DNA of 32,000 nt from Candidatus Saccharimonadota bacterium (GCF_003351905.1 NZ_CP022339.1:330001-362000), one strand, 5' to 3'; positions 6,809 through 10,302 are shown, counted from the first letter of the stretch. Made by a program: numbers and translations. The notes: a model not told the origin generated them from the letters alone.

Positions 6809-6929
6809 GATTTCGTATGTGTTCAGTGCAATGGTTTTTTGCGTCAAAAAAACTGCCCCTGTAAAAAGTCGCGGTTTAGAAAGTGGCTTTTTACCGAGGG
6901 CTTGATTTTTTGTCCACTTTTTTATCAAG
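6809..6929 (-). repeat. MITE-like repeat, copy C: right-hand portion of a copy split by the IS110 element
   Basis: The minus-strand sequence cttgataaaaaagtggacaaaaaatcaagccctcggtaaaaagcc...cacatacgaaatc is colinear with 28396-28485 of the intact copy. Confidence 0.7.
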
Positions 6930-6947
6930 AAAAAAGCTATTATCTTA

Positions 6948-7627
6948 CTATGCAAGTTTTTTAGTCATTTTGTACTCGTTTTTGATACTTTTGACGAAGC
7001 TTCTTTTTTGTTGTATAAGCTTATGCGCCAGCTCTAGGAGCTTCCTCATACATGCTACGATAGCCACTTTTTTAGGCTTATATTTACCTACTAATCTATC
7101 ATAGCATTCTTTTAAATATAGGAACCACTTTTTCCCTGCTAATACAGCCATATACAGTGCATCTCGTGGTATTTTCCTTCCTCCCCTAATAAATCTTTTT
7201 CCCTGTTTTTTCCCACTATCAGCCGCATATGGTGCTATACCTACTAAAGCTGATAGTTGATTACTACTGTAGCTTCTATCACCTAATTCAGGTAAAAAAC
7301 TGACTAATTTAGTGGCTAAACATTTCCCGATTCCTGGAATGGTTTCTAGTATATTAGCCTTTTCGTCTAGATCCTTATCAGTAGTTATGGTTTTATTTAA
7401 CGCTTTATCAATAATTTTTATTTCTTTTTCTAAAAAATCGATATGCCTTTCTATGCTTTCTTTATCTATATTAGTCTGGCTATGGTGTAACCGTTTCTTT
7501 TCATTGCTTAATGTAGCTACCAGCTCTTCTCTTCTTTGTTGTTGCCTTTTAAGCCGATCTGTTGTAATATAATAGCTGTAATTAGCTTTCAATCCCCTTT
7601 CCTGTCCATAGCGAGCTAGTTTAAAAG
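6948..7627 (-). CDS. IS110-family recombinase, exon 2 (C-terminal Transposase_20-like part)
   Basis: The frame is open upstream of the tracked TTG and reads (A)FKLARYGQERGLKANYSYY...IPGIGKCLATKLVSFLPELGDRSYSSNQLSALVGIAPYAADSGKK, the hallmark C-terminal IS110 motif. TAG stop at 6948-6950. Confidence 0.8.
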
Positions 7628-7743
7628 GTAGAGTAGAGCACTGGCGCGGTGAAGTATAGGACCAGGTTTATCCGTGTCCATCGTTTCCGATTTCGTGCCT
7701 AAATAACCCAATCTCTCTTTCCCGTTTCCAGCACCCCCCCGTC

Positions 7744-7776
7744 GCACCGTACGTGAGGTTTTCCCTCATACGGCGC
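7744..7776 (-). ncRNA. Group II intron domain V
   Basis: The minus strand reads GCGCCGUAUGAGG-GAAA-ACCUCACGUACGGUGC, which matches the conserved domain V hairpin (AGCCGUAU....GAAA....ACGUACGG) about 25 nt downstream of the IEP stop. Confidence 0.8.
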
Positions 7777-7799
7777 ACGGATCGTCTTCTTCGTCTGCA

Positions 7800-9098
7800 T
7801 TACGTCCATCTGTATCGCACCCGATAAGCTCCTACATTGACTAATTTGTACACTTTGTGGAGCTTCTCGTCGGGGAGTTCCTTATACCCGTTCTTCCTAC
7901 TCCCTTTCTTTTTCATGATAAATCTTCTCAGACGCCTGTTTGCATGCCCTTGTACTTTCCTAAATCTCCTAGAACTGGCCGTGTGACGGTAATACTCCGT
8001 CCACCCCAGTAAGGATGCGTTTAAGTCTTTAACAATAGTTTCAACACTTTCGTGCAACCGGTTCCGATAGGTCAATTGCGTGACTTTCTTAATAATCCGC
8101 TTGATTGCATCAGGTGTAGGATACATATGGGTAACGGGTTTCTGATATCTTGGCGAGTATCCCCTTTTAAAGGCATACCCTAAGAAATTGAAACCTTCTT
8201 CGGCCGTGGTCATTCGACTCTTTTCTTCATTGATCGAAAGGCCCAAGCGTTGCAGATACCCACATAAAATACCCAAAATCTTCTCTACCGGTTTATTCGA
8301 CACTATCACGAGATCGTCCGCATAGCGGACAATCTGTGCATTCCACCCATTCCTTTCGGTCATCCGCTTGACCCATACTGTGTCTAGCAGATTCAGGTAT
8401 ATATTAGAAAGTAAGGGCGAAATGGGGGACCCTTGAGGGGATCCTTGTCGAGTAGCAACTTCTTCGCCTTTAAGGACTCCTGAGCGAAGCCAGGCTTGTA
8501 TTAACTTTAGAACATACCTATCACTGATTCGCTTTTGAATGACTTTCATAAGCTTATCGTGTGGGATTGAGTCAAAGTATCGCTTCAAATCAATATCTAA
8601 AACTTGGGTGAGCCCGTAATTAAGCCATTTATATATTGATAGACTTGCATGGACTGCGGATCGTTTAGGTCGAAACCCAAATGAGCATTCTTGGAAGTCT
8701 GCTTCAAAAATTGGCTCTATAACAAGACGGGTTGCAGTTTGTACTAAGCGGTCCTTAATCGTGGGCACTCCCAAGATTCTTATTCCTCCTTTCGGTTTGG
8801 GTATTTCCACGCGCTTTGTCTTATTGCTTCGGTAGCTTCCTGATTCCAGTTCTTTTTGAACTTGTCCAAGAAACGCTTCTTCCCCTTGTTCTTTGATTTG
8901 TTCTATTGTTATTCCATCTATGCCTGGTGCCCCGTGATTTGCACAAACCTGTTTCCATGAACAGACCAGTACGTCCAATCTATATATTTTGTCATGAAGG
9001 GTGTAGAAGCTGCGTTTAGGATTAGACTTAGCAGATCGATAAAGTTCTCGCTGCAGTTCTCGGACGCTTTGTGCCATGTGGTTACCTTGCGGAATCAT
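7800..9098 (-). CDS. Group II intron-encoded reverse transcriptase/maturase (no endonuclease domain evident)
   Basis: RT motifs IPKPKGGIRILGVPTIKDRLVQ, FGFRPKRSAVHA, LDIDLKRYFDSIPHDKL, GSPQGSPISPLLSNIYL and VRYADDLVIV (YADD). Maturase X motif LLGWTEYYRH. The C-terminus is short and has no H-N-H motif. Confidence 0.95.
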   Translation of the reverse strand: MIPQGNHMAQSVRELQRELYRSAKSNPKRSFYTLHDKIYRLDVLVCSWKQVCANHGAPGIDGITIEQIKEQGEEAFLGQVQKELESGSYRSNKTKRVEIPKPKGGIRILGVPTIKDRLVQTATRLVIEPIFEADFQECSFGFRPKRSAVHASLSIYKWLNYGLTQVLDIDLKRYFDSIPHDKLMKVIQKRISDRYVLKLIQAWLRSGVLKGEEVATRQGSPQGSPISPLLSNIYLNLLDTVWVKRMTERNGWNAQIVRYADDLVIVSNKPVEKILGILCGYLQRLGLSINEEKSRMTTAEEGFNFLGYAFKRGYSPRYQKPVTHMYPTPDAIKRIIKKVTQLTYRNRLHESVETIVKDLNASLLGWTEYYRHTASSRRFRKVQGHANRRLRRFIMKKKGSRKNGYKELPDEKLHKVYKLVNVGAYRVRYRWT

Positions 9099-9624
9099 GG
9101 TATCTTTCCCTGTTTTGAAAACATGACGAAACTGAAGATCCTTCGCTCCGGTAAGGTTTTGTTGTCCTTGCCATCTTCACTACTACTATCTTCCCGACTT
9201 CCTGCACAGCATCGGAACGAACTTCGACTTGCGCCTTATATCCTTCCTTACTCTTGGAACTTAAAGACCGTGCAGGATCTCCCACGTTTCTCCTCCTTTC
9301 TTTCCTACGTGCCGCCCCTGCTACGCCGGGAGATAAGTGACGGTTATTGACCTGTTATCTTTCCGTCACTTTACAGCTTTCGCCCACCAGACGAGAGGCT
9401 CAGCATCTCCAATTCCCAGATTTCTCTGGTAAGACCTTCACGGCGCTACATATAGGTTCCTTGCGTACGGCCCGCAGTTTGCGTAGCTCCTTGTACAGAG
9501 CCGTCGTCGAGTGGCTTCATCTACAAAAATTACTCTTTATAGATGCACTCCTCGCTACCTGGCCAACAGGCCTATTGCCAGGGTGGGACTTGCACCCACT
9601 AGAAAGGAGGCCTTCGTGGCACGC

Positions 9625-9922
9625 CATCGTGTTTATCCGTTTTACAGTGGTCTAGAGATTTACTAAATGAACTAAAAGTATATGTATTCACTTGATGTAT
9701 GTGTACATTAGCGGCATACAATTTCTCACAAATGGCTCTTTCATATCCCCCAGTTGGTTCACATACTATAATTTTAACAGCTACTTGATCTAAATAATCT
9801 ATAAGTTCCTTATGGCCCTGCTCATCGTTACGAAACCTTTTATATACAGATTTAGCCTCTTGACTATAGAAACATGCATCCAGCCATGTTTTCCCTATAT
9901 CTAAACCAAGTATTCTGTTCAT
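9625..9922 (-). CDS. IS110-family recombinase, exon 1 (N-terminal DEDD/RuvC-like part)
   Basis: MNRILGLDIGKTW..., ...VCEPTGGYE... and ...CKTDKHD are the conserved IS110 acidic-residue motifs. The tracked ORF then runs into intron sequence (GVPRRPPF*). Confidence 0.8.
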
Positions 9923-10134
9923 TTTATATTATATTTATTTATATTTCCTTATTCTTATCGTACAAGACAGTTGTAGGCAACTTCTTCTGCTATTTGTTCA
10001 AAGAAAATAAAGGTAAGCAGGTACTTAAGCTTTTTTCGACTATTAACTATATAAAGTCCAGTGGGATACAAGTAACCTGCTACCTTTAAAATACAATCTT
10101 TTTAAATCTTAACTACATCTAGAATCTTTCTTAA

Positions 10135-10179
10135 GCTGTGTTTTTGATGGATAACTAAAGTTATCCACAAAACCACAGC
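10135..10179. other. Long imperfect hairpin inside the IS110 5' non-coding arm
   Basis: gctgtgtttttgatggataact-aa-agttatccacaaaaccacagc forms a stem of about 20 bp with one mismatch and one bulge. Confidence 0.6.
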
Positions 10180-10252
10180 TTACCTACTACTATTTTTTAC
10201 TATAAATTGAATATGATTCAAGCTACATCTATAGCTATATCTATCTAGTGCT

Positions 10253-10302
10253 AAGATATAAGTAGGATAAAATTCATTATGAACCAGTATCGTGAACAGA
10301 TG
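10253..10302 (-). repeat. MITE-like repeat, copy D2: left-hand portion of the copy split by the IS110 element
   Basis: The minus strand catctgttcacgatactggttcataatgaattttatcctacttatatctt is colinear with 28349-28398 of the intact copy and ends exactly at the CTT junction. Confidence 0.7.

Follow-up and report, generated by a model that had tools for sequence, protein, structure and literature searches.

A group II intron in an IS110-type recombinase gene within a MITE-like repeat, and related introns at the same codon of other IS110 genes

Anatomy of the nested locus

The stretch of DNA analysed here, NZ_CP022339.1:330001-362000 of assembly GCF_003351905.1 (32,000 nucleotides (nt), hereafter the window, with positions counted from its first letter), carries on its minus strand a group II intron located in the recombinase gene of an IS110-group insertion sequence (IS), which is itself located in a repeat resembling a MITE (miniature inverted-repeat transposable element). 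The coordinates of the features are collected in Table 1. Two gene products of the locus, P0006 and P0121, are 100% identical to NCBI proteins of the Cardinium endosymbiont of Sogatella furcifera (cSfur), each forming a cluster with a single member on a single contig. The former is annotated there as a 214-amino-acid (aa) 'Transposase IS116/IS110/IS902 family' fragment, corresponding to part of exon 2, and the latter, which is the product of the intron open reading frame (ORF), as 'group II intron reverse transcriptase/maturase'.

An earlier reading made from the sequence only had taken two minus-strand ORFs as the halves of one IS110 DEDD recombinase, and the protein family matches of the joined product confirmed this. 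The frames lie open in the window at 9599..9922 and 6948..7592, and when 9922..9625 is joined to 7627..6948 the ORF of 978 nt that had been proposed is obtained (326 codons including the stop, that is, 325 codons and the stop). Its product matches DEDD_Tnp_IS110 (PF01548) at residues 5-148, across the junction, as well as Transposase_20 (PF02371) in Pfam, and it matches the NCBIfam model NF033542, 'IS110 family RNA-guided transposase', over the full length with 160.4 bits (cut-off 140). An alignment of 15 proteins is free of gaps through KTDKHD|AFKLARYG, again as foreseen, with D8, E55, D96, D99 and S237 invariant, and the DEDD and Transposase_20 architecture with its catalytic Ser becomes complete solely once the intron is removed. 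The nearest full-length homologues (P0001-P0004, 72-74% aa identity) are uninterrupted. In BLASTN, metagenomic ISs free of the intron (L002-L007, 75-80% nt identity) give two alignment pieces that abut one another, the first ending at 9625 and the second resuming at 7627, which is exactly the predicted junction. The insertion point is between nt 1 and nt 2 of the Ala codon following the fourth catalytic Asp (KTDKHD|A). Given the sense orientation of the intron and the in-frame joining of the exons, only spliced mRNA would yield the complete recombinase, and we infer that splicing restores the 325-aa enzyme in vivo.

The 1997 nt between the exons were likewise found to hold the parts ascribed to them, namely a reverse transcriptase (RT)/maturase ORF, a domain V and a domain VI with a bulged A. 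The protein of 432 aa carries RVT_1 and GIIM domains, terminates after the X domain and reaches 375.7 bits against TIGR04416 (cut-off 300); an exact-protein look-up of the form taken from the second Met gave no match. Covariance models of Rfam, which the sequence-only reading had put forward as a check, match the minus strand at 9601..9461 (RF02003, group II D1-D4, 87.4 bits, gathering score 49) and at 7778..7628 (RF00029, domains V/VI, 45.7 bits, gathering score 40). The consensus fold of domain I from six members of the intron clade described below comprises 94 pairs, with compensatory changes in 37 of them. The bulged A7634 reads 7 nt from the intron 3' end, which is AC and fits the AY boundary consensus. 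A related intron of Ca. Caedibacter/Paracaedimonas acanthamoebae is 83% identical across all 1997 nt, and the similarity ends no more than 4 nt from both boundaries. While the intron coordinates of the earlier reading thus proved exact, the 5' end is GCGUG and not the canonical GUGYG. Homologous 5' ends read GUGUGCC (L010, L064, L067, L074), GCGCGCC (three Caedibacter copies) or GCGUGCC (L144 and Paenibacillus introns), and as the same variants recur in relatives, GCGUG is regarded as a variant of the clade rather than a misplaced boundary, and is unlikely to be lethal to the intron.

The CGUC of the loop assigned to exon-binding site 1 (EBS1) can pair with GAUG, the final four nt of exon 1, which form the intron-binding site 1 (IBS1). 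This assignment is validated by the homologous loop, which covaries with IBS1 in distant relatives, the loop and 5'-exon pairs being CAAAC/GTTTG, ATTCT/AGAAT, CACG/CGTG, CATG/CATG and TCCT/AGGA. Placing EBS1 in the large hairpin loop 9369..9337 (AAAGAUAACAGGUCAAUAA) or in the following UUAUCUCC was rejected, as no covariation with IBS1 was seen there. A search of the intron gave no convincing EBS2 candidate that could read the conserved upstream positions of the target.

Introns of class IIC are recognised by a CGC triad in domain V, a distal stem of that domain shorter by 2 bp than in IIA and IIB introns, an AGGAA epsilon' bulge and an EBS1 pairing of 3-4 bp (PMC1702495). In the present intron, the basal stem of domain V bears CGC where AGC would otherwise stand, the 11-nt epsilon' bulge is found between paired columns 159 and 172 of the alignment, with (A/G)GGAA in 6/6 sequences, and the EBS1 pairing is of 4 bp. 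The conserved target positions -22..-12 would need some reader. No EBS2 is evident, and the intron protein, which lacks an endonuclease domain, has the GsI-IIC and E.r. IIC RTs as its nearest solved relatives, scoring 212 bits with the IIC structure 6AR1 and 197 with 7UIM versus 151 for IIB and 112 for IIA. However, the distal stem of domain V (UGAGG/CCUCA, 4-5 bp with a 5-nt loop) is without the 2-bp shortening, and the 5' exons of the IS110 hosts fold no better than shuffled sequences (z -1.3 to +2.0); a terminator- or attC-type stem-loop was looked for in these exons and none was found. Among the terminator-associated relatives, z was -4.4 in L037 and -4.7 in L045, and L034 shows a hairpin with z -1.5. 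Because two of the IIC features are missing, we speak of IIC hallmarks and refrain from assigning the intron to class C, from which, IIC-attC introns included, it also differs in that its target is a coding sequence and not a terminator or attC, and in an insertion of about 95 nt in domain VI. This insertion occupies the distal part (7728..7644) between both basal strands, and is present as well in L066 and L067, the two relatives inspected.

The outermost layer is a non-coding repeat of about 165-170 nt, present as four copies in 32 kb, one of them truncated and one internally deleted. That the IS lies in a MITE-like repeat had already been claimed and was corroborated by these four occurrences and by the empty site, since excising 10260..6935 rebuilds a repeat colinear with the three other copies of the window. 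In copies B and D, approximately 15-16 of 22 positions match when the left terminus (GTATCTGTTCAC..ACTGGTT) and the reverse-complemented right end (GTATGTGTTCAGTGCAATGGTT) are compared. At the few copy ends that were looked at, a clear target-site duplication could not be made out, nor did the window yield a parental IS; 'MITE-like' is, in our opinion, a fair name. The repeat is not MITECca01, an IS982-derived element reported as unique to another Cardinium strain (PMC9769881). Copy A ends inside the loop of its second hairpin exactly where the IS-bearing copy B starts, for which reason the two copies are themselves regarded as abutting or nested.

The IS is inserted in the 5' arm of the first hairpin (HP1) of copy B, at TATCC(C/T)A-CT-TTTTTC. 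Its ends were fixed by alignment with five relatives (L002 and L151-L154) and by the rebuilt empty site, which matches the other copies of the repeat; they lie 8 nt from those given by a naive reading. The ends placed at first (...TTATATCTT|AGCAC and ...TTTTTTCTT|GATAAA, with a CTT core) were rejected, because the bridge-RNA loops of five relatives match their flanks only with the CT 8 nt upstream. The element so delimited has non-coding ends of 338 nt on the left and 11 nt on the right and lacks terminal inverted repeats. Traits of the IS110 group are a CT core, a left end that exceeds the right end in length and the guide rule of IS621, by which the left target guide (LTG) reads in the sense of the left target while the right target guide (RTG) is complementary to the right target (PMC11208160).

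The upstream region of the window IS was aligned with those of the same five relatives, and the consensus fold of the six sequences gives two stem-loops, one target-binding and one donor-binding, with an internal loop in both. The LTGs of the relatives, each compared with its own left target, reached a cognate total of 23/35, the best of 120 permutations (mean 11.8), and the RTG covaries with the right flank, as in L152, where GCAAAAAG stands with CTTTTTGC. The left donor guide (LDG) covaries at one position in the Rickettsia relative L154 (AAAUUGC with ATAATTG-CT). Since the donor ends are nearly invariant in this set, the donor loop is less firm than the target loop. The bridge RNA was left intact by the intron insertion because it is located upstream of the intron. 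In an Rfam scan judged by E-value, no bridge-RNA family matched the IS left end.

When the predicted 15-nt target was searched for in the window with up to 3 mismatches, 9 matches were obtained versus 1.37 expected, and the best ones are in copies of the repeat; copy A holds an unoccupied near-perfect target, TATCCCA-CT-TTTTTA (10369..10355), which with 1 mismatch is the best unoccupied one in the window. The same repeat family flanks the IS relatives in other metagenomes, with L002-L005 at the same point of the repeat in different flanks. The relative L153 (Logan SRR25400289) has the usual left flank, while on the right it is joined to a different segment of this family, GCTTTTT-ACCGAGGGCTTGATTTTTTG, which is the hairpin-2 arm in reverse complement, and its right guide mismatches its flank at 2/8 positions; this could reflect an off-target insertion or a later deletion. 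The IS left end also forms, upstream of the bridge RNA, a long near-perfect hairpin (AAGCUGUGGUUUUGUGGAUAAC...GUUAUCCAUCAAAAACACAGCUU, 10181..10133, minus strand), which is kept in the four closest IS relatives and absent from L154, whose left end begins about 25 nt before the target-binding stem-loop.

Related introns at the same codon of other IS110 genes

Loci of the intron clade were gathered by scans of genome and metagenome collections and by look-ups of homologous intron proteins, which gave loci with readable flanks. A locus was counted as a site if K-[TSN]-D-x-x-D plus one G closes the 5' exon and/or if CN and then IS110-type sequence open the 3' exon. At the codon of the last Asp of the DEDD tetrad, in the motif K-x-D-x-x-D|A, 15 sites were obtained, the window included: L008, L009, L010, L064/65, L066, L067, L068, L069, L070/L023, L074, L144, L145-148, L149/150 and a more distant pair, L072/073 (48% intron-protein identity). 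In IS110 genes, all insertions share both the homologous codon and the orientation. L023/L070 (56% for the intron protein) is a weak site, counted although only a short 5'-exon remnant (GKTDRLV|) is left and the 3' side is decayed. As a hidden Markov model built from close IS110 relatives was too narrow for the distant host transposases, Pfam was used on the spliced ORFs; it found DEDD_Tnp_IS110 in 8/8 spliced or partial hosts, of which L074 (26.8 bits) and L067 (25.3 bits) fall under the 29-bit cut-off, and Transposase_20 where the gene is complete. The clade is distributed over Bacteroidota, Alphaproteobacteria and several metagenomic lineages. This recurrent site-specific insertion indicates that the homing site of the clade is formed by the codons of the fourth catalytic Asp and the next Ala in IS110 recombinases.

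Intron proteins are 84-100% identical in cases where the host transposases are just 22-59% identical. In one and the same genome, L008 and L009 have intron proteins identical at 100% and transposases at 45%, and between the window and L144 the values are 88% and 30%. The nearest intron copies (83% at the nt level) are those of an alphaproteobacterial amoeba symbiont, in IS110 genes only 22-36% identical to that of the window, and since they sit in such different genes of Alphaproteobacteria, the intron was acquired separately from its host IS. The same had been suggested earlier from G+C content. The intron is indeed richer (46.5%) than the rest of the IS (32.9%) and the remaining window (41.1%), and four copies checked from other hosts show 44.7-46.5%; as the sole argument for separate acquisition, however, this is weak, because structured ribozyme parts are G+C-rich anywhere.

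A sixteenth site is ectopic. In Ca. Caedibacter acanthamoebae (CP008936.1), the member L011 interrupts an RluA-type pseudouridine synthase gene (PseudoU_synth_2) at junction 2973|4974, in KKNDSLD|AYF. At the DNA level, this site has the consensus AAnAArAnnGAynnnnnnGAyG|C in common with the IS110 sites. As the conserved upstream positions are shared by this site, recognition would extend beyond base-pairing, and the positions AAnAArAnnGAy are probably read by the intron protein. With 240 aa, the spliced pseudouridine synthase ORF is intact, which hints that introns of this type may splice in vivo. Spliced host ORFs are intact also in L008, L010, L064 and L144, and the host genes of L009, L149 and L070 are decayed. 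More distant introns, with proteins about 40-50% identical, have their sites elsewhere, after terminators (about 40%) or at CATG. Intron copies on the Ca. Paracaedimonas acanthamoebae plasmids CP008937.1 and CP008939.1 are annotated as hypothetical proteins only, and their public annotation does not register an intron in IS110.

A proposed chain of site-specific parasites and its alternatives

By comparison of sequences we have shown the anatomy of the locus, its exact boundaries, the recurrent insertion of the clade and the covariation of guides with targets. From these we consider it probable, at roughly 0.8, that three site-specific parasites form a chain at this locus, each targeting the layer below by sequence. 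The base of the chain would be the repeat of about 165 nt downstream of gatB, into whose HP1 5' arm the IS would have inserted under guidance of the target loop (LTG and RTG) of its own bridge RNA. The endonuclease-less intron would then have retrohomed into the recombinase gene at KTDKHD|A, reading GA(U/C)G|C through the 4-bp EBS1 (CGUC) and EBS3, and AAnAArAnnGAy upstream probably through its protein. The lineage could hop among very different IS110s and phyla because its target DNA encodes the most conserved IS110 motif. Ribozyme and maturase would splice the recombinase pre-mRNA to give the enzyme, and transposition of the IS would in this way be gated by intron splicing. Present-day mobility of any of the three layers we likewise infer. 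The nesting had previously been read as coincidental layering, a view that we abandon, since homing of the clade and guide-target covariation point to each layer parasitising the one below.

Several points weigh against this chain. Splicing is a prediction, and IIC-type introns are reported to ligate exons inefficiently in vitro (PMC1702495). The intron 5' end departs from the canonical one (U2C). Base-pairing covers only 5 nt of the target, and the remaining recognition is a conjecture. The left target mismatches the LTG once (T for C at position -2), the donor-loop guides rest on one covarying position and the match of the right donor guide (RDG) is short. Judged by NCBI protein-cluster metadata, the IS and the intron are each apparently single-copy in cSfur and, therefore, there is no sign of recent activity there.

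The single copies, the non-canonical 5' end, the flank mismatch and the poor in vitro ligation could also be expected of a dead fossil, in which the insertion killed the last IS copy, no productive splicing takes place, both elements are inactive and the in-frame junction is functionally meaningless. We regard this as a serious possibility, if a doubtful one. It would agree with the report that all 9 IS110-family copies (ISCca12) of another Cardinium strain are non-intact (PMC9769881), with the decayed host genes of several relatives, and with the fact that precise retrohoming alone yields an in-frame junction. What speaks against a fossil is that the long frames are all open (99, 226 and 432 codons), every invariant recombinase residue is retained, the ribozyme keeps its pairs and its domain V/VI motifs intact, conservation is seen in the bridge-RNA loops as well, and the intact spliced ORFs of relatives include the pseudouridine synthase gene of L011, which is of housekeeping type. 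The intactness of the locus, however, would fit a very recent insertion as well as function.

The homologous codon and the constant orientation could also reflect a single ancient entry into an IS110 element followed by vertical inheritance, the shared position being due to ancestry. This we hold to be extremely improbable, given the discordance between intron proteins and transposases, extending to L008 and L009 within one genome, the unoccupied site in the nearest intron-less relatives of the window IS and the occupation of a look-alike site in the non-IS gene of L011. Nor do we favour, although it appears somewhat less improbable than co-descent, an IS whose place in the repeat is due to chance, or to a gene-free safe spot being available there, without an RNA guide. 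AT-rich intergenic repeats tolerate insertions, the guide-flank matches are short and A/T-rich, and the Rfam scan of the left end was negative; but five relatives with unrelated flanks occupy the same position in the same repeat family, the loop sequences vary in step with the flank of each relative, the geometry obeys the published LTG/RTG rule including the CT core, and the predicted target is enriched in the window with its best matches in the repeat copies.

Returning to the chain of site-specific parasites, each of its links has counterparts in known systems. Bacterial group II introns are associated with other mobile DNA, and three target specificities are listed for them, homing occurring in all lineages except class C (PMC4424553). 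IS110 elements insert in palindromic repeats (PMC1525189). The nested locus alone is a clean example of two things already known, introns in ISs and IS110s in palindromic repeats. RmInt1 in ISRm2011-2 of Sinorhizobium meliloti, one of several bacterial introns with homing sites in IS transposase genes, is similar in being an endonuclease-less intron in sense orientation in such a gene, with the IS serving as homing site and vehicle (PMC1802570). RmInt1, however, belongs to IIB/class D and uses long EBS1/EBS2 pairings to a single IS species, whereas the present intron has IIC hallmarks, a 4-bp EBS1 and a protein-motif-coding target in IS110 genes of 22-59% identity from several phyla. The IS resembles IS621 and the IS110 group in its DEDD and Transposase_20 domains, the long left end with a two-loop RNA, the CT core and the sense of LTG and RTG (PMC11208160), and in having its target within a repeated palindromic element (PMC1525189). 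It differs from IS621 in that its recombinase gene is split by an intron and its target is MITE-like with terminal inverted repeats (TIRs) in an insect endosymbiont, while that of IS621 is the REP. The dependence of a mobility enzyme of the host element on intron splicing, with the intron restraining the host gene, recalls Ll.LtrB in the relaxase gene ltrB (PMC6003770); there the host is a conjugative plasmid, the intron is IIA with an endonuclease and the effect is experimental, whereas here it is a prediction.

No description of IS110-associated group II introns was found in the literature searched, most subscription journals and the Zimmerly intron database being outside its reach, and within it an IS110-dedicated intron lineage appears undescribed. 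We tentatively suggest, as a possibility rather than an expectation, that a widespread lineage with IIC hallmarks is a dedicated hyperparasite of IS110 bridge-recombinase genes, homing without a stem-loop cue and gating the recombinase by splicing, so that the mobilities of both are coupled. If this were true, the lineage would cross between unrelated IS110s and phyla because the K-x-D-x-x-D-A site cannot easily mutate away, in parallel with inteins and homing endonucleases, which exploit immutable active-site sequences. The clade rule would add a fourth target type of bacterial group II introns to homing sites, terminators and attC, and homing into an IS110 motif would occur in a ribozyme type thought to depend on stem-loops. 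Bridge recombinases are being engineered as genome editors. The locus may provide natural recombinase genes that need RNA splicing for their expression, and it adds a new bridge RNA whose guides for target and donor can be read. Two mobility systems guided by RNA are naturally linked in it, and it is compact enough to probe how a short EBS1 together with protein contacts gives high specificity.

Coordinates, neighbouring genes and minor observations

Table 1. Coordinates of the features of the nested locus and of its surroundings in the window.
Feature	Position	Strand	Remarks
IS110-group IS, 3324 nt plus one CT core (1327 + 2 without intron)	6937..10260	minus	relatives in different flanks
IS left junction	core CT 10262-10261	minus	TATCCTA-CT-TATATCTTAGCAC (TATATC...)
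IS right junction	core CT 6936-6935	minus	AAGATAATAG-CT-TTTTTCTTGAT (...GATAATAG-CT-TTTTTC)
Predicted right end-left end (RE-LE) circle junction of IS			...GATAATAG-CT-TATATCTT...
Bridge RNA target-binding loop	10011..10085	minus	stem-loop with internal loop; consensus fold of 6 relatives
LTG, UAUCCCA-CU (UAUCCCACU)	10068..10060	minus	same sense as left target and core
RTG, GAAAAAAG	10037..10030	minus	reverse complement of CT+TTTTTC
Bridge RNA donor-binding loop	9945..10005	minus	consensus fold; weaker support than target loop
LDG, AAAUAGC(A)	9995..9988	minus	matches donor ATAATAG-CT (IS right end)
RDG, GAUAAG	9959..9954	minus	reverse complement of CTTATC, versus donor CT-TATATC (CT-TAT of left end)
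Recombinase exon 1	9625..9922	minus	99 codons + 1 nt; D8, E55, D96, D99 of DEDD tetrad
Recombinase exon 2	6948..7627	minus	2 nt + 225 codons + stop; Transposase_20 domain, conserved Ser237
Predicted ligated exon junction	9625/7627	minus	...AAACACGATG joined to CTTTTAAACT
Group II intron, 1997 nt	7628..9624	minus	5' end GCGUGCC, 3' end CUCUAC; several IIC hallmarks
Intron domain I	~9610..9292	minus	consensus fold
Epsilon' bulge with AGGAA	9464..9456	minus	unpaired GCAAGGAAC
EBS1 loop, CUCGUCUGG	CGUC at 9393..9390	minus	covariation with IBS1
IBS1, GAUG	9628..9625	minus	last 4 nt of exon 1
IBS3, C	7627	minus	first nt of exon 2
RT/maturase ORF, 432 aa	7800..9098	minus	RVT_1 + GIIM; YADD present; no endonuclease domain
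Domain V	7778..7741	minus	CGC triad; reads GUG-CGC-CGUAUGAGG...
Domain VI	7740..7628	minus	bulged A7634; ~95-nt distal insertion
MITE-like repeat copy B, ~165 nt without IS	6815..10303	minus	left part 10303..10263, right part 6934..6815
Copy B terminal inverted repeats, imperfect	10303..10282; ending 6815	minus	GCATCTGTTCACGATACTGGTT; AACCATTGCACTGAACACATAC
Copy B hairpins			HP1 (CCTACTTTTTT/AAAAAAGTGGAC); HP2 terminator-like
MITE-like copy A, truncated	10308..10403	minus	directly downstream of gatB
Further MITE-like copies	28346..~28516; 1794..1884	plus; plus
gatB	10438..11892	minus	neighbour on one side of nested locus
Histone-like Hc1 gene	6232..6429	plus	neighbour on other side of nested locus

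The Logan contig SRR26730806_84709 (L001), from an independent assembly, equals window 9278..7627 at 100% and ends 1 base beyond the intron 3' end. A break next to the intron end suggests that, in that sample, at least two 3' exons adjoin this same end; a second 3' exon would mean a second intron copy, while the NCBI clusters point to a single copy in cSfur. The genome paper of cSfur names neither introns nor IS110 (PMC6147030).

An outward match resembling a weak promoter was observed at 6968..6939 (minus strand), where the -35 falls at the end of the recombinase gene and GATAAT within the right end of the IS. Circle junctions of IS110 elements are known to assemble promoters. A sigma-70 promoter scan of the region gave matches not above chance, and it does not cover the promoters of Bacteroidota, which differ.

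Next to the right end of the repeat, the 65-aa ORF at 6232..6429 encodes a chlamydial-type histone H1-like Hc1 protein (PF07432, 85 bits). Further along, the minus-strand gene 3625..5802 encodes a protein of 725 aa made up nearly entirely of ankyrin repeats, and it is this gene which accounts for the direct repeats with a period of 99/102 nt (families D1, D2 and D6).

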